Origin: Candidatus Electrothrix laxa
GTDB lineage: Bacteria > Desulfobacterota > Desulfobulbia > Desulfobulbales > Desulfobulbaceae
DNA length: 24,000 nt
NCBI GenBank assembly: GCA_942492895.1
Contig: OW818652.1
Span: 532,462-556,461 of the forward strand
Reading direction: 5' to 3'
Position 1 is the first letter of the stretch, and every line of letters begins with the position of its first letter. The notes beneath the pieces are model-generated. The model did not search any database. It was not told where the DNA came from and saw nothing but the letters and a program-made list of their open reading frames with translations. The translations under genes and the position numbers were made by a program. Shown one piece after another: positions 3,812 to 24,000 of the stretch.

Positions 3812-3883
3812 TTCCGGGGCACCGCACCCCACGGCGGTATTGCCTTTGGTGTGGATCGTCTGCTTATGTCCTGAAGGATCGAG
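3812..3883 (+). pseudogene. 72-bp relic of the aspS 3' region (homologous to 1352-1422)
   Basis: Direct nucleotide alignment to aspS 1352-1422. The core CACGGCGGTATTGCCTTTGGTGTGGATCGTCTGCTTATG encodes HGGIAFGVDRLLM and differs from aspS at 4 positions, all third-codon and synonymous. Flanks contain indels, and homology ends at TCGAG (3883). Confidence 0.85.
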
Positions 3884-3892
3884 TATTTTGAA

Positions 3893-5218
3893 ATGAAGTC
3901 GTATCCGAAAAAAATATACATATCTGCTTCATGGCATGAAACTGAGGCAGTATTCCCAGCATTTCTGATCGAAAAATTTATTGATCAGAATGTAACAATT
4001 GTCGGAGATCACCCAGATTACAAAGAGGATGATCCTTTTGACAGGTCATGGGTGGCTCGAATTCATAAGTTGATTTCCGACTGTAGCGCATTAGTTGCGG
4101 TGTTTCCAAAACGTACGGATGTTCAAACTACTTCACCATACATGTTTCCAGAAATTATTTCGGCAGCTCTTCATAATATTCCTATCTTGATGTTTTCACA
4201 GAGCGGGGTGTTGATAAAGTCAATAAAGACTAAGTCCGGTTACAATTTGCATTTTGGTGATTCTGATAAAAAAGAAACCCTTAACTCCCTTGATATTGTT
4301 AAAAATAAATTTTGCCTAGATGAAATAGACAGATTTCTTAGTGATATATCGATCTTGAAACTATCTACTGAATCTGAGATAAGTGGACCTTACGAACTTC
4401 TTGGCGATGACAAAATTGAAGATATTGTAGGACGATTTGTAAAAGGTAGTAAAAGGCCTTGTCGAGAATCTTACGTCTTTAACATAATACCCTTTTCTTT
4501 AGTAGGTAGAGAGCACAAAGAAATTTCAAAGGCAGTGTTTGAAGAGACAGGATTGCCTTGTGTTACTGCATTAGATTCTATTGGCGACTCCCAAGATATG
4601 CGCTCGAAGTGGAAGGAGTCTTTATCTAACGCAGAATTTGTAATTGTCGAGCTATCTCAATTAAGAGATGCTTGTATATTTGAAGCAGGTATAGCTGTTG
4701 GGATGGGGACTGATGTGTATGTATTAACTGGAAAAAACAAAATATCAATTCCATATGGCTTAGATGATAAGCCATTAAGAGTTTATTCTTCTCTAAGCCA
4801 GTTAAGAACATTGGTCAAAGAAGTATGCTGTAAGGAATATAAAAGAAAGGTTTACAACCTTGATCCAATATATAATAAGTCTTTGCTAATTGGTGGGGTT
4901 GCCAATGGTGTTCCAGAGTGGTTATATGAAGCAGAAAAAAGATTTACCCCAATTCATGCATATACTGCATCCTCGTGGCTAATTAGTGTATCTATTGCCA
5001 TAATAATATGGATAATATTTTTGAATTATGGCGCATCTGATTCACCCCTGTCGTATGTAAGTATGGGTATAAGCCTAGTATTTGGTATTGTTCCTCATCT
5101 TCGAGGTGTTAGGGAAAGTGTAGAAAATAAAATATTGGAGAGATATAGCAGAATATTTTTTTCTTCATTAGGTGTATTTATTCTATGCGTATCTGCTTTG
5201 GTGTTTTCTTACCTATAA
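3893..5218 (+). CDS. hypothetical membrane protein: two tandem nucleoside 2-deoxyribosyltransferase/TIR-like (SLOG-type Rossmannoid) domains plus 3 C-terminal TM helices
   Basis: Domain 1 (aa 5-105): KKIYISAS..VTIVGD..ISDCSALVAVF..SPYMFPEIISAALHNIPILMF. Domain 2 (aa 192-310): YVFNIIPF..NAEFVIVELS..DACIFEAGIAVGMGTDVYVLT. Both show the strand-helix pattern with an acidic residue before a small-residue helix (E87, E264). The hydrophobic segments are aa ~360-380, 386-403 and 421-441. A strong terminator follows. No SD. Coding confidence is high; the domain assignment comes from pattern recall only. Confidence 0.75.
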   Translation: MKSYPKKIYISASWHETEAVFPAFLIEKFIDQNVTIVGDHPDYKEDDPFDRSWVARIHKLISDCSALVAVFPKRTDVQTTSPYMFPEIISAALHNIPILMFSQSGVLIKSIKTKSGYNLHFGDSDKKETLNSLDIVKNKFCLDEIDRFLSDISILKLSTESEISGPYELLGDDKIEDIVGRFVKGSKRPCRESYVFNIIPFSLVGREHKEISKAVFEETGLPCVTALDSIGDSQDMRSKWKESLSNAEFVIVELSQLRDACIFEAGIAVGMGTDVYVLTGKNKISIPYGLDDKPLRVYSSLSQLRTLVKEVCCKEYKRKVYNLDPIYNKSLLIGGVANGVPEWLYEAEKRFTPIHAYTASSWLISVSIAIIIWIIFLNYGASDSPLSYVSMGISLVFGIVPHLRGVRESVENKILERYSRIFFSSLGVFILCVSALVFSYL

Positions 5219-5399: not shown

Positions 5400-5620
5400 A
5401 TGAAAGTGACCAGTACATAGGCATTCAGACCTTCAGCGAAATCCGTGAAGAAGAATACCGCTACGTTGATAAAACAAAAATAGCTTTTGAGCTGATCAAC
5501 AACGGGAAATACTATTTTCTCTCCCGCCCTCGCCGCTTCGGCAAGAGCCTTTTTCTTTCCACCTTGAACAAGACCTTTCCGCAGAGAAAAATGTTAGATT
5601 TTACAGACGGAACAGGCTAG
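5400..5620 (+). pseudogene. 5' relic (~50 codons) of an AAA-ATPase_like/PDDEXK_9 family gene, paralogous to the gene at 6632
   Basis: 5416-5566 aligns without gaps to 6646-6796 with 9 mismatches in 151 nt. It encodes [50 protein letters not shown]. The candidate ATG at 5400 is out of frame with this stretch. Homology stops at 5566 and the frame ends at TAG 5618-5620. Confidence 0.85.
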
Positions 5621-6035: not shown

Positions 6036-6510
6036 ATGCTTCTAGACAGCAATGCGATCATCTATTCCATCAAACCTGAATCTGATGCATTGCGTCAACT
6101 GATAGCGGAACATAATCCTTGATGGTTTCGTAAAAAGCCCCATTTTGCGAAAAGTCGCACCGTAACTCATTGAGTTGTCGTTAGCGAATTGCCATTTTCT
6201 GACTTTTTACCAGATCATCAATCCTTCGGTATCGGCTGTCAGTTATGTGGAGGTGCTGGGGTATCATCAATTGACGGTATCGGATAGAGAAGACTTTATT
6301 GAATTTTTCAAGACAGCGCAGATTATTTCTGTTTCACAGCCGGTTTTGGAGCAGGCGGTGGCGTTACGACAGCAGCGCAAAATATCTTTGGGAGATTCCA
6401 TTATTGCGGCAACCGCACTCTTGAACGATTTGACTTTGGTGACGGCAAATGTCTCTGACTTTCGTTGGATTGACAATATCAAGCTGAAGAACCCGTTGAC
6501 TGAATTGTAA
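6036..6510 (+). pseudogene. vapC: PIN-domain VapC toxin gene interrupted by a 99-bp insertion
   Basis: The 5' part encodes MLLDSNAIIYSIKPESDALRQLIAEHNP and then hits a TGA created at the insertion junction. The 3' part (the ORF-track 6175-6510 ORF, in another frame) encodes SVSAVSYVEVLGYHQL...LGDSIIAATALLNDLTLVTANVSDFRWI. Deleting 6121-6226 restores one continuous 122-codon PIN ORF (AEHNPSVSAVSYVEV). Confidence 0.85.
6121..6219. mobile_element. 99-bp MITE-like insertion with imperfect ~17-bp terminal inverted repeats and a 7-bp target site duplication
   Basis: The TSD AATCCTT occurs at 6114-6120 and 6220-6226. The left end is GATGGTTTCGTAAAAAG and the reverse complement of the right end is GATGATCTGGTAAAAAG (14/17 match). 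It has no coding capacity. Its removal restores the vapC frame. Confidence 0.75.
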
Positions 6511-6631: not shown

Positions 6632-8161
6632 ATGCGAAAATTACCCATAGGTATTCAAACCTTCAGTGAAATCCGTGAAGAGGAATACCGCTACGTTGAT
6701 AAAACAAAAATCGCTTTTGAGCTGATCAACAACGGGAAATATTACTTCCTCTCCCGCCCCCGCCGCTTCGGCAAGAGCCTTTTTCTTTCCACCTTGCAGG
6801 CTGTGTTCGAGGGCCGGAATGAGCTGTTTCACGGCCTGTATATCTATGACATCTGGGATTGGCAGACAACCTATCCGGTCGTCAAAATCAGCTTTGCCGG
6901 AGTGGCCCGAAATGTTGCTGCTATGCAGCAGGATATCAGGAATATCCTCAAGGATAACCGGGAGCGCCTGAACATTGACTGCCTGCACGAAGAAGATACA
7001 GGTGGGTGCTTACGGGAGCTGATCAGGAAGTCATTTGAAAAATATCAGCAGAAAGTCGTTATCCTGGTGGATGAGTACGACAAGCTGATACTTGATAATC
7101 TGGATCAGCTGGAGGTCGCTCAAGAGGCAAGGGAAATCCTCAAAGACCTGTACGCAACCATCAAGGACTGCGACGAGTATATCAAGTTCGCCTTTTTTAC
7201 CGGCGTCAGTAAATTTGCCAAGGTCTCTGTGTTCAGCGGCCTGAATAACCTTTCGGATATCTCCCTTGATCCTCGTTACGCGACCATCTGTGGTTATACC
7301 CAGAATGATCTGGAAAGCGTTTTTATCGATCTTCTGCAAGACGCTGATATGGACAGGGTGCGGGAGTGGTACAACGGCTATAATTTTCTGGGGGAAAAAG
7401 TTTATAATCCCTTTGATATCCTGCTTTTCATCGACAAGGGACTCATTTTTAATAATTATTGGTTCGAGACCGGCACGCCGACCTTTTTACTGAAGCTTAT
7501 CCGGCAGAACAATTATTTCCTCCCCCGTCTTTCCGACCTGCGGGTTGACAGCTCGCTTCTCGACGGTTTTGATATCGACCACATCAGACTTGAATCTATC
7601 CTGTTTCAGGCCGGTTACCTGACGATCAAAGAGGTTCATGAACTAGAGTTCGGAGGGTTTGAATATACCCTGCACTACCCGAACAGAGAGGTCGCCCTTT
7701 CCTTTAATGACGCGCTTATCCGTTTTCTGACGGACGCGACAACATACACCCCCATCAAAACCGGCTTATTTTCCGCATTAAAATCCGGGGATGTCGAAGC
7801 ATTGAAAGATGTGCTCATCTCCCTGTTCGCCTCGATTCCGTATAATAATTATGTCAAAAACACAGTTGCCGAGTATGAGGGCTATTATGCCAGTGTGATT
7901 TATGCCTATCTCGCAAGCCTGGGCATACGCATTATCGCAGAGGATGTGACTAATACCGGGCGTGTCGACTTAACGCTTTTCCTGGGTGATAACATATATA
8001 TTGTCGAGTTTAAAGTTGACGGCAATGCTGATCCCCTTGAGCAGATTAAAGACCGAAAGTATGCGCAGAAGTATACAGGCCAGGGGATAGTGTATTTGGT
8101 CGGTATCCTTTTCAGCAGTACAAAGAAAAATATTGCGGCGTTTTCTTGGGAAAGGGTATGA
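6632..8161 (+). CDS. AAA-ATPase_like (PF09820-type) N-domain plus PD-(D/E)xK nuclease (PDDEXK_9-type) C-domain protein
   Basis: Signature N-terminus [55 protein letters not shown] (GKS P-loop). Walker B is VVILVDEYDKL. The C-terminus TGRVDLTLF..IYIVEFKVDG fits a D...E-x-K nuclease core. SD (AAGGAGAG) upstream. Confidence 0.85.
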   Translation: MRKLPIGIQTFSEIREEEYRYVDKTKIAFELINNGKYYFLSRPRRFGKSLFLSTLQAVFEGRNELFHGLYIYDIWDWQTTYPVVKISFAGVARNVAAMQQDIRNILKDNRERLNIDCLHEEDTGGCLRELIRKSFEKYQQKVVILVDEYDKLILDNLDQLEVAQEAREILKDLYATIKDCDEYIKFAFFTGVSKFAKVSVFSGLNNLSDISLDPRYATICGYTQNDLESVFIDLLQDADMDRVREWYNGYNFLGEKVYNPFDILLFIDKGLIFNNYWFETGTPTFLLKLIRQNNYFLPRLSDLRVDSSLLDGFDIDHIRLESILFQAGYLTIKEVHELEFGGFEYTLHYPNREVALSFNDALIRFLTDATTYTPIKTGLFSALKSGDVEALKDVLISLFASIPYNNYVKNTVAEYEGYYASVIYAYLASLGIRIIAEDVTNTGRVDLTLFLGDNIYIVEFKVDGNADPLEQIKDRKYAQKYTGQGIVYLVGILFSSTKKNIAAFSWERV

Positions 8162-11830: not shown

Positions 11831-11838
11831 CCTGCCGT

Positions 11839-11899
11839 GTAGGGGCAGACCTCTGTGTCCGCCCGGTATCAAAGGGCGAACACACAGGTTCGCCCCTAC
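11839..11899. repeat. GTAGGGGC double-hairpin palindromic repeat, copy a
   Basis: GTAGGGGCAGACCTCTGTGTCCGCCC-GGTATCAAA-GGGCGAACACACAGGTTCGCCCCTAC. It sits between the convergent stops of tatA2 (11830) and trpS (11937). Confidence 0.9.
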
Positions 11900-11936
11900 A
11901 TCCCGCATCAAATAGAGGCTTGTCTCCTGGTAAATC

Positions 11937-16419: not shown

Positions 16420-16480
16420 GTAGAGGCAGACCTATGTGTCTGCCCGGTATGAAAGGGCGAGCACACAGGTTCGCCCCTAC
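16420..16480. repeat. GTAGGGGC double-hairpin palindromic repeat, copy b
   Basis: GTAGAGGCAGACCTATGTGTCTGCCC-GGTATGAAA-GGGCGAGCACACAGGTTCGCCCCTAC. It lies 25 nt after the ADH stop. Confidence 0.9.
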
Positions 16481-16538
16481 AAACATGAACCAACGGTTTT
16501 TCTCTACCACTCAAAAATGATCAGGTCTGGAGATCCTT

Positions 16539-18175: not shown

Positions 18176-18251
18176 GGAGGGGCGAATCCCTGTGTTCGCT
18201 CTGAATATCCGTGCAGGATATAAACGGGCAGGCACAGGGACCTGCCCCTAC
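18176..18251. repeat. GTAGGGGC-family repeat, copy c (degenerate, long spacer, opposite orientation to a and b)
   Basis: GGAGGGGCGAATCCCTGTGTTCGCTC, then a 24-nt spacer with its own ATATCC/GGATAT hairpin, then GGGCAGGCACAGGGACCTGCCCCTAC. The stem GGGCAGG/CCTGCCC is preserved. Confidence 0.75.
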
Positions 18252-18352
18252 AGCGTTCGATTCATCGGGTTATTTGACAACCCCGTCCCTTGGGGCGGGG
18301 TTTCTTTGTTTTGTGAGGGATTCAATAAAAAATATCGCTTATGTTGGGTGTC

Positions 18353-18426
18353 GTAGGGGTAAACCTGTGTGTTGACCCTTGCCGCCACTCGGACAACAAA
18401 GGGCAGACACATAGGTCTGCCCCTAC
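18353..18426. repeat. GTAGGGGC-family repeat, copy d
   Basis: GTAGGGGTAAACCTGTGTGTTGACCC, a 22-nt spacer, then GGGCAGACACATAGGTCTGCCCCTAC. Confidence 0.8.
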
Positions 18427-18533
18427 AATACTGCGTTTGAAAAGAGGATTTTGTTTTTTTGAAGAATTCCTCAGAAAAGATAACGTCCTTGTTTATAAGG
18501 GCTCATTGATATTACAGAGGAAAAATACAGATT

Positions 18534-19855: not shown

Positions 19856-19945
19856 CCTGGGGTGTTCCCCAGGCTGGATAAATAGAGCCCTTTTAGGGCA
19901 GAAGGGCAAATCGGGAGAATAGAGTACACGGCGTGCCGTGTACGT
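19856..19945 (+). repeat. family-2 composite intergenic repeat, copy 1
   Basis: CCTGGGGTGTTCCCCAGG hairpin, then ATAGAGCCCTTTTAGGGCAGAAGGGCAAATCGGGAGAATAGAGTACACGGCGTGCCGTGTACG. About 90% identical to 21570-21633. Confidence 0.8.
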
Positions 19946-20025
19946 CTTTTTTCGGAGTGTTAGAAGTTCAATACCAAGCTCAACACAACTTGAGCTGCTT
20001 TGAAATTAAAACAGGGAGCTGTACG

Positions 20026-20649: not shown

Positions 20650-20676
20650 TCAGGGCAGAACCCTGAGTTGTTTTTT
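20650..20676 (+). terminator. candidate terminator after the Uma2 gene
   Basis: TCAGGG-CAGAA-CCCTGA hairpin followed by GTTGTTTTTT. Confidence 0.45.
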
Positions 20677-20772
20677 AGGAAATCATCACATGTGCATGTT
20701 CGCCAGTCGCCTCGCTCTGTGGAGAAACGGAAGGTGCCAGCGGATCATAGGGGAAAAGGGACAATAAGGCGG

Positions 20773-21066
20773 CTATATCTTTTTCAGACGTTTGATCATC
20801 TGTTTGTAGACCTCTTGATCACGACGAATGCCGACCTTGACAACAAAAATTCTAATATCATCATTTTCTATTTTATAAACAACTCGATAACCGGATATTT
20901 TCAATTTCCACAGCCCTTTTAATTCATGACGCAGCGGAGCGCCGTACTCCTTTGGTGCTGTACTGAGTTTTTTGTAGATAGTTTTGAGGATAAGAGATTG
21001 GTCTTTCTTGCTTACTTTCTTGAAATCTTCATCAAGGACAAGGCGATGTATTTTTATCTGCCACAT
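20773..21066 (-). CDS. relE: RelE/ParE (StbE-like) family type II toxin
   Basis: 97 aa. LKGLWKLKISGYRVVYKIENDDIRIFVVKVGIRRDQEVY fits the RelE/StbE core. Paired with an upstream antitoxin gene. Confidence 0.85.
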   Translation of the reverse strand: MWQIKIHRLVLDEDFKKVSKKDQSLILKTIYKKLSTAPKEYGAPLRHELKGLWKLKISGYRVVYKIENDDIRIFVVKVGIRRDQEVYKQMIKRLKKI

Positions 21067-21082
21067 GTTGAGTGGGTTCCTT

Positions 21083-21352
21083 TCAGGCCAACAGGGATTC
21101 TATGTCCACGTAGTCGGATTTCTGGCTGTTTTCCAGGCGCTCCTTTGCTATAAAACCCAGCACTAAATCCTCGGCCAGATCCAACATGGCTGTTATGGAT
21201 TCGTACTCTTCATTGGACATTAAAACCGCCTGCGGTTTATGTCTCTTTTCTATGATAACAAGGCCTTTTCGGGCCTTTTCAAGAATTTTGTCGATCCCTG
21301 AACGCAGTTCGGATACACCAATGAGCGTTGTATTTTCTTTTACTGTAAGCAT
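21083..21352 (-). CDS. Phd/YefM-type antitoxin of the RelE-like toxin
   Basis: MLTVKENTTLIGVSELRSGIDKILEKARKGLVIIEKRHKPQAVLMSNEEYESI (Phd/YefM N-domain). Strong SD (GGGAGGAAAAATG) for the ATG at 21352. A 16-nt gap separates it from the toxin. Confidence 0.8.
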   Translation of the reverse strand: MLTVKENTTLIGVSELRSGIDKILEKARKGLVIIEKRHKPQAVLMSNEEYESITAMLDLAEDLVLGFIAKERLENSQKSDYVDIESLLA

Positions 21353-21569
21353 TTTTCCTCCCATTCCTCTCTAGCAAATAAACACCCATCCCTGCGGCCC
21401 GAGACAACGAGACATGAAGTAGGATGGGCGAAACTCTAAGTGGTTAGTCGGCGCTTTCATATAAGCTGTCCGTATAGACAGAGTAATTTATGTCGATTGT
21501 ATTGTCAATTTAATAGTCGTTTGAAACGACATTTAGACCTTTTTAAGGTCTGGCGGTGCAGCAGCTCTT

Positions 21570-21633
21570 ATAGAGCCCTTTCAGGGCAGAAGGGCAAATC
21601 GGGAGAAGTAGGGTACACGGCGTGCCGTGTCCG
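21570..21633 (+). repeat. family-2 intergenic repeat, copy 2
   Basis: ATAGAGCCCTTTCAGGGCAGAAGGGCAAATCGGGAGAAGTAGGGTACACGGCGTGCCGTGTCCG. It abuts the yoeB stop codon. Confidence 0.8.
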
Positions 21634-21634
21634 T

Positions 21635-21907
21635 TTATCTGATGTTATCGTAATGTCCACCAATGGCGAAAATAGAGATGCTCTGCTCATCAAAGGTGTA
21701 AATCAGGCGATCTTTATGAGAGATCCTTCGTGACCACAGGCCGGTTAGGTTGTGTTTCAGCGGCTCCGGTTTTCCAAGGCCCTGAGCAGGATCGTTTCGT
21801 TGCATTTCCTGAAGAATACGACAGAGATTCTTATGCACCCTCTTGTCCTTGCTCCGCAGTTGTTCGTACTCGGCCCAAGTCTTGCCTTCAAATATTATTG
21901 ATCTCAT
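21635..21907 (-). CDS. yoeB: YoeB/Txe family type II toxin (mRNA interferase)
   Basis: MRSIIFEGKTWAEYEQLRSKDKRVHKNLCRILQEMQRNDPAQGLGKPEPLKHNLTGLWSRRISHKDRLIY. This contains the GKPEPLKHNL.G.WSRRI signature. Start taken at M13 of the ORF. Confidence 0.9.
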   Translation of the reverse strand: MRSIIFEGKTWAEYEQLRSKDKRVHKNLCRILQEMQRNDPAQGLGKPEPLKHNLTGLWSRRISHKDRLIYTFDEQSISIFAIGGHYDNIR

Positions 21908-22160
21908 CAAGCTGCTCCTTGGTCGGAGAATAGCCCTTTCCACTTCGATGGGTTACCAGAGATTGTTTGATCTGTTGCATGAGTGAGGTGTTTTGGAGAA
22001 CGTACAGGGTTTCCTGAATCTGTTCCCAATCTTCCGCCCCGATAATCACAAAGTCTTTGCCGCGTTTACGGGTTACCCGCAGGGGCTCGTGATTAGTGAT
22101 ACTTTGGTCTGCGCAACTTTTTAAAGAGGCTCGGAATTTATTTGCTGTAATTTCACGCAT
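21888..22160 (-). CDS. yefM: YefM family antitoxin
   Basis: MREITANKFRASLKSCADQSITNHEPLRVTRKRGKDFVIIGAEDWEQIQETLYVLQN (YefM/Phd fold pattern). Overlaps yoeB by 20 nt. Confidence 0.88.
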   Translation of the reverse strand: MREITANKFRASLKSCADQSITNHEPLRVTRKRGKDFVIIGAEDWEQIQETLYVLQNTSLMQQIKQSLVTHRSGKGYSPTKEQLDEINNI

Positions 22161-22512
22161 GGTTACTCACCGATTGGTTAATAATCTAGTAATTGAATTA
22201 ATTGTTTTACATGAAAAAACAAAACCTTGAAATCTTAGTAAGTGAAATCAACATATTGGATGATTGCTTGTGAAAATAGGCTGTTGAGAAGTTTCCTGTT
22301 TAGGAATACTTATTATCTGGCCCAATATAGCGCTTAAAGGACATCTCTGCAAATACGGTCAAAATACCGGCATCTCTTATAACGTTATGATTTGTTTATG
22401 TTTAGTCAATTAATTATATACACTTTTTATTGACCAATCGATGAGTGGTTATGTACCATAATTGACAGTTAGGGATTCAAAAAGAAATATTCTACCCATT
22501 ATGTCGAGTACT

Positions 22513-22573
22513 GTAGGGGCGAACCTATGTGTTCGCCCTTTTATGCCGGGCAGACACGCAGGTCTGCCCCTAC
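22513..22573. repeat. GTAGGGGC double-hairpin palindromic repeat, copy e
   Basis: GTAGGGGCGAACCTATGTGTTCGCCC-TTTTATGCC-GGGCAGACACGCAGGTCTGCCCCTAC. This is the reverse-complement orientation of copies a and b. Confidence 0.9.
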
Positions 22574-22626
22574 AATTCAGCACCTAAAAGCGGGGAGTTT
22601 ATTTTTTGTTGGTTTCCTTAATATTG

Positions 22627-22658
22627 TTTACATGTACTGTGTTACCGTACCATATAAT
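22627..22658 (+). promoter_or_regulatory. possible promoter of the FGE-like gene
   Basis: Perfect -10 TATAAT at 22653-22658. The best -35-like hexamer, TTTACA (22627-22632), has a non-optimal 20-nt spacer. Confidence 0.25.
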
Positions 22659-22684
22659 GAACCGTGGAGCAAGGGCGGAAAACT

Positions 22685-23419
22685 ATGATCGACGAATCCA
22701 AACGTTGGCCGGAATCCTTTCCTGATATTTGGGCCTCGGAATGGGGCGAGGATGAATACGGCCTCTGGATGGCCTTTCATTATAAGAAGATCCGCCATGT
22801 CATGCGCTGGATTGAGCCGGGTACCTTTATGATGGGGTCGCCTGAGGATGAGGCGGAGCGTGGGTCTTGGGGAGCAGATGAGACTCTGCATCAGGTGACC
22901 TTGAGTGAGGGCTTTTGGCTTGGAGCGACAACGGTAACTCATGAGTTATGGGAAGCAGTTACGGGAGAAAACCCCAGCGAGTTTAAAGGAGCGCAACGTC
23001 CGGTGGAACAAGTGAGTTGGGAGGGTACGCAAAAGTTTATGGCCCGGCTCAATAAGGAGATTCCCGGTCTTGAGCTCGACCTTCCCACGGAGGCGCAGTG
23101 GGAATATGCTTCTGAAAAGGGCAAATATTGCGGGAAAACTTTTTTTGATATTGAGGAGTTGTCCAGCAATACTTGGGGGTTGCACCAGATGCATGGGGAT
23201 ATGGAAGAGTGGTGCCGGGACTGGTTGGGTGATTATCCATCTGGTCCTGTTGTCAACCCTGTAGGACCGTCTGAGGGTCGTTTCCGTGTGTGTCGCGGCG
23301 GCTCTTGGTACAGCCGCGGCAGGCTTTACCTTTATACTTACCGCTATGGGAATACGCCGGATTACTGCGGTAACGATCTCGGTTTTCGCCTTTCCCGAGG
23401 TCGAACAGGCACGAGGTAG
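22685..23419 (+). CDS. formylglycine-generating-enzyme-like (FGE-sulfatase/SUMF1 fold) protein lacking the catalytic cysteine pair
   Basis: WIEPGTFMMGSP...HQVTLSEGFWLGATTVTHELWEAV...PVEQVSWEGTQKFMARLN...GDMEEWCRDW...RVCRGGSWYSRGRLYLYTYRYGNTPDYCGNDLGFRLSR. ATG 22685 is preceded by AAGGGCGG. The alternative GTG start is at 22664. Confidence 0.85.
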   Translation: MIDESKRWPESFPDIWASEWGEDEYGLWMAFHYKKIRHVMRWIEPGTFMMGSPEDEAERGSWGADETLHQVTLSEGFWLGATTVTHELWEAVTGENPSEFKGAQRPVEQVSWEGTQKFMARLNKEIPGLELDLPTEAQWEYASEKGKYCGKTFFDIEELSSNTWGLHQMHGDMEEWCRDWLGDYPSGPVVNPVGPSEGRFRVCRGGSWYSRGRLYLYTYRYGNTPDYCGNDLGFRLSRGRTGTR

Positions 23420-23508
23420 GGCGCACGGCGTGCCGTGCCCGTTTGCCACCTACCCTACCCCAGGCTGGCTAAATACAGCCCCGTTGGGGCTGGGGAGCCC
23501 TGAAGGGG
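23416..23508 (+). repeat. family-2 composite repeat, copy 3 (modules in a different order)
   Basis: GTAGGGCGCACGGCGTGCCGTGCCCGTTT matches the 3' module of copies 1 and 2. It is followed by CCCCAGGCTGGCTAAATACAGCCCC, which matches the 5' module of copy 1, and a CAGCCCC-GTT-GGGGCTG hairpin. It lies between the FGE-like and Trypco2-like genes. Confidence 0.7.
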
Positions 23509-23536
23509 TTCAATATGTTAATCCAAGGAGGCAGTA

Positions 23537-23944
23537 ATGAGTAAATCAGTCCAATCCATTGAGTTGAAAAACGGCGTTCAGCTTTGGGTAGAGGTGGAAG
23601 ATGTTGATCTCCCAGCAGAGTTGACTACTAGCGGAAAAGAGCAAGAACTTCCTTCAAATATGCCGCCCGGTACCGAGGAGATCGGTTTCAAGGAAAAGGT
23701 AAAGGAGGTCGGAGATAAGGTCAGAGATGTTAATGAGATACTTCGGCAGAGCCTGAGCAGCATCTTTGAGACCGTTGCTGAATCGGTCAAAGAGAAGCAG
23801 CCGGATGAATGGGGTGTGGAGGTGAACATCGGTTTTAAGGGGAAGACTAATCCGATCCCGGTTATCTTGAGCGGTGAGGCTAATGCCTCAATCAAGGTTC
23901 ACGCCAAATGGAGCAAGGATAAACCGGAAGCGCAAAATGGCTGA
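23537..23944 (+). CDS. Trypco2-like (trypsin-co-occurring domain 2; CU044_2847-family-like) protein
   Basis: 135 aa with a strong SD (AAGGAGG). The pattern IELKNGVQLWVEVEDV...helical middle...PDEWGVEVNIGFKGKTN..ILSGEANASIKVHAKW matches my recollection of this family: an N-terminal beta-hairpin (x-dG-v-x-vEv) and a C-terminal (EfG-lk...a-l-V-l-W). No HMM was run. Confidence 0.65.
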   Translation: MSKSVQSIELKNGVQLWVEVEDVDLPAELTTSGKEQELPSNMPPGTEEIGFKEKVKEVGDKVRDVNEILRQSLSSIFETVAESVKEKQPDEWGVEVNIGFKGKTNPIPVILSGEANASIKVHAKWSKDKPEAQNG

Positions 23945-24000
23945 TTGGAAGCGAGCAGTGGCTCGCCTTTACCAGGGGAGGCGGGATGAAGGCGGAGTAT
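23937..24000 (+). CDS. 5' end of an unknown gene translationally coupled to the Trypco2-like gene (runs off the window)
   Basis: ATG 23937 overlaps the upstream stop (ATGGCTGA). It encodes MADWKRAVARLYQGRRDEGGV. Only 21 codons are visible, so function is not assignable. A trypsin-like peptidase would be the expected partner. Confidence 0.5.
   Translation, partial: MADWKRAVARLYQGRRDEGGV

Follow-up and report, generated by a model that had tools for sequence, protein, structure and literature searches.

Nucleoside triphosphate (NTP)-dependent conflict systems of the MoxR-vWA ternary type have a third component with an N-terminal trypsin-like peptidase, and this peptidase is accompanied by either a Trypco1 or a Trypco2 gene, the two being mutually exclusive (PMC7159879). 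In these systems, FGS domains are effectors on the vWA protein and are often varied by diversity-generating retroelements (DGRs); such systems are found preferentially in multicellular bacteria (Kaur et al. 2020, PMC7159879). In proteobacteria, iSTAND systems dominate, with FGS as the effector that they use most often (Kaur, Burroughs, Iyer, Aravind 2020, eLife, PMC7159879). Here, we analyzed a 24-kb stretch, called the window below, of the chromosome (4.08 Mb) of the cable bacterium Candidatus Electrothrix laxa (Desulfobulbaceae). We consider it likely that the end of the window holds the first three genes (the 5′ end) of a multi-gene NTP-dependent conflict system, working in immunity or cell suicide. 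An earlier note on this DNA had proposed such a module of the Kaur/Aravind type, and the proposal agrees with our results, as a trypsin-like peptidase gene comes next and MoxR or STAND NTPases are found in relatives. This kind of system is already described by comparative genomics, and the locus is a new example in the cable-bacterium lineage.

More recent studies have added mechanisms to these families. Evans et al. (2025, 10.1101/2025.11.14.688446) grouped Trypco1 and Trypco2 as "Pepco" and listed domains of the formylglycine-generating enzyme (FGE) type among the associated sensors. SsPepco is a stable beta-barrel, and its partner protease SsAvs4 cuts it after Ile97, removing a 2-kDa C-terminal tail (10.1101/2025.11.14.688446). 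The tail-less protein kills Escherichia coli, and its features fit a membrane pore. In addition, the Esr MoxR-vWA pathway of Actinomycetales was demonstrated to be a threat sensor (10.64898/2026.09.08.750141). Thus, the statement of the earlier note that no mechanism had been shown is outdated, both for the sister family Trypco2, with its protease-activated pore, and for the related MoxR-vWA pathway. Furthermore, Dore et al. (10.1101/2023.09.22.558884) described loci with a "short CLec-only plus long CLec" (C-type lectin) arrangement that have Trypco1, TIR, and trypsin neighbours.

The three genes at the end of the window lie on the forward strand. Gene 1 (22685-23419; ATG at 22685, TAG at 23419; E. 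laxa CAK8713228.1) encodes a 244-amino-acid protein of the FGE-sulfatase fold (FGS/C-type lectin). After a gap of 117 nt comes gene 2 (23537-23944; KKHLCK_02270, CAK8713233.1), which encodes a 135-amino-acid Trypco1 protein, the predicted protease substrate and effector. The first 21 codons of gene 3 (23937-24000; KKHLCK_02275, CAK8713238.1) complete the window; the full-length product is a trypsin-like serine peptidase of 484 amino acids. The ATG of gene 3 at 23937 lies inside ATGGCTGA and gives an 8-nt overlap with the stop codon of gene 2 (TGA, 23942-23944), and genes 2 and 3 are translationally coupled by this overlap. The E. laxa record contains proteins 100% identical to the products of gene 1 (P0030) and gene 2 (P0001, which is KKHLCK_02270). 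The ratio of nonsynonymous to synonymous substitution rates (dN/dS) in the core was 0.09-0.17 for gene 1 and 0.06-0.14 for gene 2, compared with 0.05-0.06 for hisD. Thus, genes 1 and 2 are real and under purifying selection.

Gene 2 is, from its sequence, a Trypco1 and not a Trypco2. It matched Pfam Trypco1 (PF19493) with E = 1.7e-12 and 48.2 bits (cut-off 24.6) and NCBIfam CU044_2847 with E = 2.4e-10 and 40.9 bits (cut-off 23), and it gave no match to Pfam Trypco2 (PF19631) at E ≤ 10. The same PF19631 model matches SsPepco at 5e-18, and the tested Pepco protein (WP_069919158.1) is by this model a Trypco2. The 135-amino-acid reading frame and its GFKGK...VHAKW pattern are present as previously noticed, and only the assignment to a Trypco2-like family has to be changed. 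The Trypco1 family comprises 283 clusters, in which the C-terminal Trp (W125) is invariant. The predicted layout is an N-terminal beta-hairpin, a disordered linker, an amphipathic helix (hydrophobic moment about 0.55), and a second beta-hairpin; the monomer model is of low confidence (pLDDT 51). The linker carries the semi-conserved motif D-L-P-x-G-A-E-P-[T/V/I]-[G/S]. In all related loci with enough sequence, a Trypsin_2 gene follows Trypco1.

The N-terminus of gene 3, MADWKRAVARLYQGRRDEGGV, is identical in 21 of 21 residues to KKHLCK_02275 (P0155, 484 amino acids), which was located by searching proteins with its orthologue in a syntenic locus as the query. This protein has a Pfam Trypsin_2 domain, and its catalytic triad is intact, since His40, Asp74, and Ser145 align with the triad of DegQ in the family profile. 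The AlphaFold2 model has a confident trypsin fold, and its Foldseek matches are trypsin-fold proteases only. In addition, residues 207-316 are modelled as all-helical with pLDDT 70-86, and the model is good for residues 1-316 only. The order of peptidase, all-alpha middle, and alpha+beta C-terminus is compatible with the VMAP layout, and there is no Pfam match beyond Trypsin_2. The trypsin-like peptidase that the earlier note had suggested looking for beyond the window is therefore the very next gene.

The remainder of the system can be read from related loci, which are cited here by number. In the complete genome of Electrothrix scaldis (L029), the order is Fe-ADH, CNNM, DUF2058, hisD, Uma2, FGE (270 amino acids), Trypco1, a trypsin peptidase gene split by an insertion sequence (IS), a MoxR-type AAA+ gene (AAA_5), and a gene for a 972-amino-acid protein ending in an FGE domain, with serS on the other strand. 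The FGE-Trypco1-trypsin triplet is also present in L017/L018 and L019/L020, and it is thus conserved in several Electrothrix genomes, a co-occurrence that had been named as a check on the module. A MoxR gene comes after the peptidase in L022, L008, L007, L019, and L005, and an AAA_5 protein is encoded directly 3′ of the peptidase gene in L022, L008, L029, L010, L011, L012, and L016. Meanwhile, a sister Electrothrix lineage, whose Trypco1 is about 70% identical, has the Trypco1-trypsin pair linked to a STAND-TPR NTPase, which is separate from the pair in L001 and L006 and fused in L024. Hence, the NTPase that had been anticipated downstream is found as MoxR AAA+ in the orthologous loci and as STAND-TPR in the sister lineage. 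More distant loci, such as those of Rubripirellula (L010) and Methylococcales (L011), combine Trypco1, Trypsin(-TIR), and MoxR with a large protein that bears one or two FGE domains at its C-terminus.

For E. laxa itself, accession numbers step by five per gene (FGE CAK8713228, Trypco1 ..233, peptidase ..238), and a second short FGE protein (P0059, 270 amino acids) has accession ..253. Two genes would fit into the spacing from ..238 to ..253, as they do in L027/L028, in which a MoxR gene and a gene for a large protein precede the 270-amino-acid FGE gene. From this spacing and from synteny, a MoxR gene and a large-protein gene presumably follow the peptidase gene in E. laxa as well. Several relatives are damaged. 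For instance, an IS (DDE_Tnp_1) lies in the E. scaldis peptidase gene (L029 8574-9920), the MoxR gene of L005 has an internal deletion (2152-2458), and FGE genes are fragmented in L009 (14583-16714), with gene fragments also in L027. The damage in L029, L005, and L009 suggests frequent turnover or inactivation of such systems.

Compared with the systems of Kaur et al. (2020), the locus, as completed from its relatives, has the same main arrangement: Trypco1 adjoins a trypsin-like peptidase that forms the N-terminus of a third component in three parts, this is followed by a MoxR AAA+ gene and then by a large FGS-ended protein, and the host is multicellular. However, additional stand-alone short FGS genes flank the operon here, and the host is a cable bacterium. 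The locus also resembles those of Dore et al. in having a short CLec-only and a long CLec protein beside Trypco1 and trypsin. Like Esr, it would combine a variable sensor domain with a conserved MoxR (plus vWA) pair that leads to a defensive output. However, Esr senses through a surface beta-propeller, responds by kinase/FHA signalling and Esx secretion, and has no protease-Trypco pair.

The product of gene 1 matched Pfam FGE-sulfatase (PF03781) with E = 1.2e-28 and 100.9 bits (cut-off 23.3), in accordance with the FGE fold proposed previously. It includes the exact string GGSWYSRGRLYLYTYRY. In the HMMER alignment to the solved FGEs 6MUJ and 2Q17, GGSYLCHDSYCNRY stands opposite GGSWYSRG---RLY of gene 1, and therefore both catalytic cysteines are missing. 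The Cys pair that marks a catalytic formylglycine-generating enzyme (...GGS-x-x-C-x-x-x-x-C...) is thus not present, and the earlier conclusion that the protein is noncatalytic is borne out. In the family consensus, the positions of the catalytic cysteines fall in a hypervariable patch. Furthermore, the closest match in the PDB is TvpA of Treponema denticola (2Y3C, E = 6e-18), which is a nonenzymatic DGR variable protein. Gene 1 is best read as a noncatalytic "FGS" sensor of C-type-lectin fold. The missing cysteines are normal for the FGS/C-type-lectin class, and the notable feature is the hypervariable patch of DGR type.

Within loci, FGE copies have DNA identities of 76-84% (L029 6436-7131/14192-14893; L027 2601-3427/10240-11054; L028 5433-6244/6736-7572), where a short FGE was compared with the FGE domain of the large protein or with a second short copy. 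Between the window and the L029 FGE gene, the identity is 73-81%. The identity within loci is similar to or higher than that between loci, which may indicate duplication or gene conversion within a locus.

The variable region (VR)-like segment of gene 1 covers residues 205-236 (GGSW...LGFRL; 23297-23392, forward strand). In an alignment of 113 gene-1 homologues, entropy of at least 3 bits (about 3.0-3.6) was found only at positions 209-211, 214, 219, 221-224, 227, and 229-231, and conservation is high elsewhere. These positions are interleaved with the invariant scaffold GGSW...GR.CRSA.R....P..R...LGFRL. At the ten most variable (NNC-type) sites, the residues K, E, Q, M, and W, which NNC codons cannot encode, make up 1.1%, compared with 31% at the other variable columns. 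In the variable codons, the third base is fixed and the first two run through all bases. In addition, synonymous conservation was 0.76 in the scaffold codons and 0.57 in the rest of the gene (permutation p = 0.003), and dN/dS was 0.28-0.71 in the VR compared with 0.09-0.17 in the core. The interleaved entropy, the NNC restriction, and the fixed third bases form, at the level of the family sequences, the DGR-target signature, which is that of adenine mutagenesis from AAC codons. In this respect, the family is like the DGR C-type-lectin targets such as TvpA (2Y3C), with a GGSW...CRSA...LGFRL scaffold and interleaved hypervariable NNC codons.

However, unlike for DGR targets, neither a reverse transcriptase nor a DGR accessory gene turned up in the window or the other Electrothrix loci that were examined, and searches of the 24-kb window and of L017, L019, L027, L028, and L029 gave no second VR copy and no template repeat. 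Literature searches on DGRs in cable bacteria found nothing. The template expected for the Electrothrix VR would resemble GGCGGCTCNTGG-AAC-AAC-AAC-...-TGCCGTTCTGCC-AAC-CGC-AAC. A template-like pattern derived from the Electrothrix scaffold matched at least 120 metagenome stretches, 83 of which have a DGR-type reverse transcriptase on the same contig; these are generic DGR templates, none of which comes closer to Electrothrix than 77% identity over about 110 nt. A complete DGR is present at the Rubripirellula locus. Besides an HRDC gene and an RVT_1 reverse transcriptase, it comprises one template repeat as well as three variable regions, and 35 of the 38 differences between template and variable regions are at template adenines.

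The E. laxa copy of gene 1 has peculiarities of its own. It is without 30 amino acids (RAGTTTPFFFG...) that are found in the family members of about 270 amino acids, and this deletion is common to a metagenomic relative, L030 (P0031), with a synonymous divergence (dS) of 0.59 and a core dN/dS of 0.17. Among the 113 homologues, only the E. laxa copy has YLYT in place of the near-invariant CRSA, together with R228C, Q86H, and C143S. In this region (window 23324-23347, codons 214-221), a hexamer-like run, CTTTAC CTTTAT ACTTAC (L-Y-L-Y-T-Y), stands in place of the scaffold codons TGC CGT TCN GCC, and the length is unaltered. These changes are not of the adenine type, and they lie at sites outside what a DGR would alter; a DGR would spare the scaffold positions at which this copy departs. 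They may be the result of decay, of local slippage or conversion, or of a different template. An origin by frameshift was considered and rejected, as by eye the frame-shifted codons resemble nothing in the family scaffold.

Taken as a conflict system, the operon would have the order short FGS, Trypco1, trypsin-like peptidase with helical and alpha+beta regions, MoxR-type AAA+, large protein with a second FGS domain at its end, and probably another short FGS protein. The FGS domains would be noncatalytic ligand binders, whose C-terminal hypervariable patch would recognise an invader molecule. The large protein and the MoxR ATPase would pass the binding signal on to the third component, which bears the peptidase, and the activated peptidase would cut its dedicated small partner, Trypco1. 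The cleaved Trypco1 would then kill or arrest the infected cell, most likely through membrane damage, and spare the rest of the filament. The sequences themselves show the domain identities, the intact triad, the translational coupling, the conserved linkage of the genes, the purifying selection, and, for the family, the hypervariability signature. We infer every step of this mechanism, and also the identity of the two genes past the window, from relatives and described systems; the Pepco-type mechanism in particular is applied to Trypco1 by inference only. Like the SsPepco-SsAvs4 pair, the locus has a gene for a small protein immediately 5′ of a trypsin-like protease attached to a sensor or NTPase, and in the sister Electrothrix lineage the protease can be joined to a STAND-TPR NTPase in one protein, in the manner of Avs. 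However, the NTPase here would be MoxR and not Avs4.

Several points weigh against this proposal. The two genes that follow the peptidase gene in E. laxa are deduced from relatives. In L022/L023, the Trypco1-trypsin-MoxR order occurs with no short FGE gene upstream, and the short FGS protein may thus be dispensable or accessory. The E. laxa FGS copy may itself be impaired by the loss of the invariant CRSA scaffold and the 30 residues. The large protein ending in FGE domains occupies the position expected of the vWA protein, but it gave no vWA match with Pfam (E ≤ 10), NCBIfam, or PADLOC and, by eye, no DxSxS motif (MIDAS), and a PDB sequence search with its N-terminal 676 residues was empty. 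Likewise, no VMAP-C or iSTAND was found in the peptidase protein by Pfam (E ≤ 10), NCBIfam, or PADLOC, where nothing beyond Trypsin_2 was matched, and its C-terminal 170 residues (alpha+beta) are poorly modelled (pLDDT below 50). The locus differs from the VMAP and iSTAND types of Kaur et al. (2020) in that Pfam and inspection by eye detected no VMAP-C, iSTAND, or vWA/MIDAS signature, and it is not assigned to a subtype. In PADLOC-DB 2.0, the three window proteins were unmatched and the orthologue components were matched only at the level of a protease domain or P-loop, and the hope of recognising a known defence system in this way was not borne out for the window proteins.

The comparison with SsPepco raises further difficulties. 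Compared by hhalign, the window Trypco1 family and SsPepco gave a probability of 0.2%, and thus no detectable sequence relation. Unlike SsPepco, the window Trypco1 has an extra N-terminal hairpin and a linker, and it lacks the 20-residue tail that is cut off after Ile97. In the family, the median length of the tail behind the invariant W125 is 5 residues, and there is no conserved Ile near the C-terminus. Thus, the published cleavage of a C-terminal tail is not transferable as such. A cut within the disordered linker of Trypco1 is a reasonable alternative route of activation, judging from the predicted layout. In the window protein, the candidate cut would be after Ile49 (...TEEI|GF..., within D-L-P-x-G-A-E-P-[T/V/I]|[G/S]), and it would free the N-terminal beta-hairpin from the core of amphipathic helix and hairpin. 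A bolder version, which we hold to be doubtful, is that Trypco1 is a second, structurally distinct protease-gated toxin, opened by an internal linker cut and not by C-terminal trimming as in Trypco2, and that its sensors are diversified in trans by a retroelement. In this version, short soluble and long tethered lectin-fold sensors would act upstream, their binding patches would be diversified by a retroelement elsewhere in the genome, and the hairpin with a GTAG head at the stop codon of gene 1 might serve as the DGR target-site hairpin. All experimental support for the Pepco mechanism comes from Trypco2.

The role of gene 1 can be explained in other ways. The source annotation is "Formylglycine-generating enzyme", and there are weak NCBIfam matches to PvdO, GldK, and EgtB, so that a metabolic enzyme, either formylglycine-generating or an EgtB/PvdO-like oxidase, has to be considered. 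However, the NCBIfam scores are far under the cut-offs (e.g., 38 compared with 500 bits), the catalytic Cys pair is missing, the would-be catalytic site is the hypervariable patch, there is no sulfatase or ergothioneine context, and the best structural relative, TvpA, is nonenzymatic. We regard this explanation as extremely improbable. Gene 1 could also be an independent passenger, a stray DGR target or paralogue copy, beside a Trypco1-trypsin operon. Indeed, Uma2 is directly followed by Trypco1-trypsin-MoxR in L022/L023, the sister lineage (L001, L006, L024) is entirely without FGE, the spacer between FGE and Trypco1 is 91-325 nt long and repeat-rich while the Trypco1 and peptidase genes overlap, and a sigma-70-like site is located inside gene 1. 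Nevertheless, the same-strand adjacency is kept in the window, L017/18, L019/20/21, L029, and probably L005. In addition, the large protein of the operon itself carries a fused domain of this FGE family and is followed by a further short copy, distant Trypco1 systems also fuse FGE domains to the large protein, and the terminator scan found no terminator-like site between genes 1 and 2. A passenger gene is thus unlikely in our opinion.

Whether the E. laxa copy of the system still works, and against what, are related questions. The module could be a relic with a nonfunctional short FGS protein, in which the 30-amino-acid deletion and the destroyed VR scaffold would be marks of decay. The changes confined to E. 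laxa and the hexamer-like replaced stretch described above, as well as the decayed loci among relatives (the IS in the E. scaldis peptidase, the L005 MoxR deletion, and the fragments in L009 and L027), are in favour of this. However, the reading frame of gene 1 is intact, its deletion variant is common to L030 at the divergence given above and with the core under constraint, and neither Trypco1 nor the peptidase shows damage, the motifs being conserved and the triad intact. We therefore give decay only a minor chance. The system might also respond to something other than phage, for example to another threat or in self/non-self sensing (epibionts, predators, or controlled death in the filament). 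In support, the related MoxR-vWA pathway senses Patescibacteria epibionts and turns on secretion and not suicide, Kaur et al. tie such systems to multicellularity in general, and no phage-related genes were found in the window. On the other hand, trypsin-Trypco2 pairs fused to Avs4 sensors answer phage portal proteins, the protease domain resembles HamA-, RT-protease-, and Avs1b-type anti-phage models, and toxin-antitoxin and nuclease genes surround the locus. A role apart from phage is conceivable but not what we expect, and the reading of the window end as the start of a conflict system remains the preferred one.

Cable bacteria are long multicellular filaments in which infection of a single cell puts thousands of connected cells at risk, and it is in organisms of this type that Kaur et al. 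predicted such suicide and immunity systems under heavy regulation. The locus is a compact and well-delimited example between hisD and serS, and the natural Electrothrix variants (with or without the short sensor, with MoxR or STAND, and with the protease fused or separate) are useful for sorting out the needed parts.

On the 5′ side of the module are hisD, a Uma2 nuclease gene, and two toxin-antitoxin pairs, one with a ParE/RelE-type toxin and a Phd/YefM antitoxin and the other with a YoeB toxin and a Phd/YefM antitoxin. This setting had been pointed out before, and it is indeed a variable island. Compared with the closely related locus L022 (4311-4420), the window (20656-23525) has about 2.9 kb extra between Uma2 and Trypco1, made up of the two toxin-antitoxin pairs and the FGE gene, and in L017 a CitMHS transporter is at this position. 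The differing content between Uma2 and Trypco1 across relatives indicates that the hisD-serS interval is a variable hotspot in Electrothrix. Rfam and tRNA scans gave no matches.

Two duplications are located farther upstream in the window. A 151-nt direct repeat with 94% identity lies at 5416-5566 and 6646-6796. The second copy spans the start of a 509-amino-acid AAA-ATPase_like/PDDEXK_9 gene (6632-8161), and the first copy thus looks like a duplicated 5′ fragment. In addition, a 69-nt duplication with 86% identity is present at 1354-1422 and 3815-3883. Its first copy lies inside the 3′ part of an aspS-like class II tRNA-synthetase gene (around 1364-1405), and the second copy lies just 5′ of a 441-amino-acid open reading frame (3893-5218) that has no Pfam match.

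The window also contains two families of repeats resembling repetitive extragenic palindromic (REP) elements. The gap between genes 1 and 2 is filled by a mosaic of REP-like hairpins (23413-23528). Its first hairpin, GTAGGGCGCACGGCGTGCCGTGCCCGT, has a GTAG head that holds the stop codon of gene 1, and it is followed by CCCCAGGCTGG...CAGCCCCGTTGGGGCTG. The family has a GTAG head and a GC-rich hairpin (GTAGGG-YR-CACGGCGTGCCGTG-YCCGT), and other copies of the hairpin are at 19916-19947 and 21605-21636. It is modular, with this hairpin and two further small hairpins whose order differs between copies; the whole elements with GTAGGG-YR-CACGGCGTGCCGTG are at 19867-19947, 21564-21636, and 23413-23528 in the window and at 6207-6278 and 7129-7170 in L029. 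The GTAG-headed element starts at the stop codon of the short FGE gene, with the TAG inside the head, in L017, L019, L029, L030, L027, and L028. Thus, the dispersed repeat that was said in the earlier note to have landed between the two genes does lie in the gap, but its presence at the short-FGE stop codon in at least six other Electrothrix loci makes it an old conserved 3′-end feature and not a recent arrival. The element is reminiscent of the hairpin that lies 3′ of DGR variable regions, but it is also present away from FGE genes.

The second family is made up of GC-rich palindromes in pairs, headed by GTAGGGG (GTAGGGGCAGACC...GGTCTGCCCCTAC), at 11838-11900, 16420-16481, 18216-18252, 18342-18427, and 22512-22574. 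The last of these, GTAGGGGCGAACC...GGTCTGCCCCTAC, lies 5′ of gene 1 and outside the protein system, and the point from which the module had been drawn earlier coincides with it. These palindromes are intergenic and scattered, and they occur in both orientations in the window.

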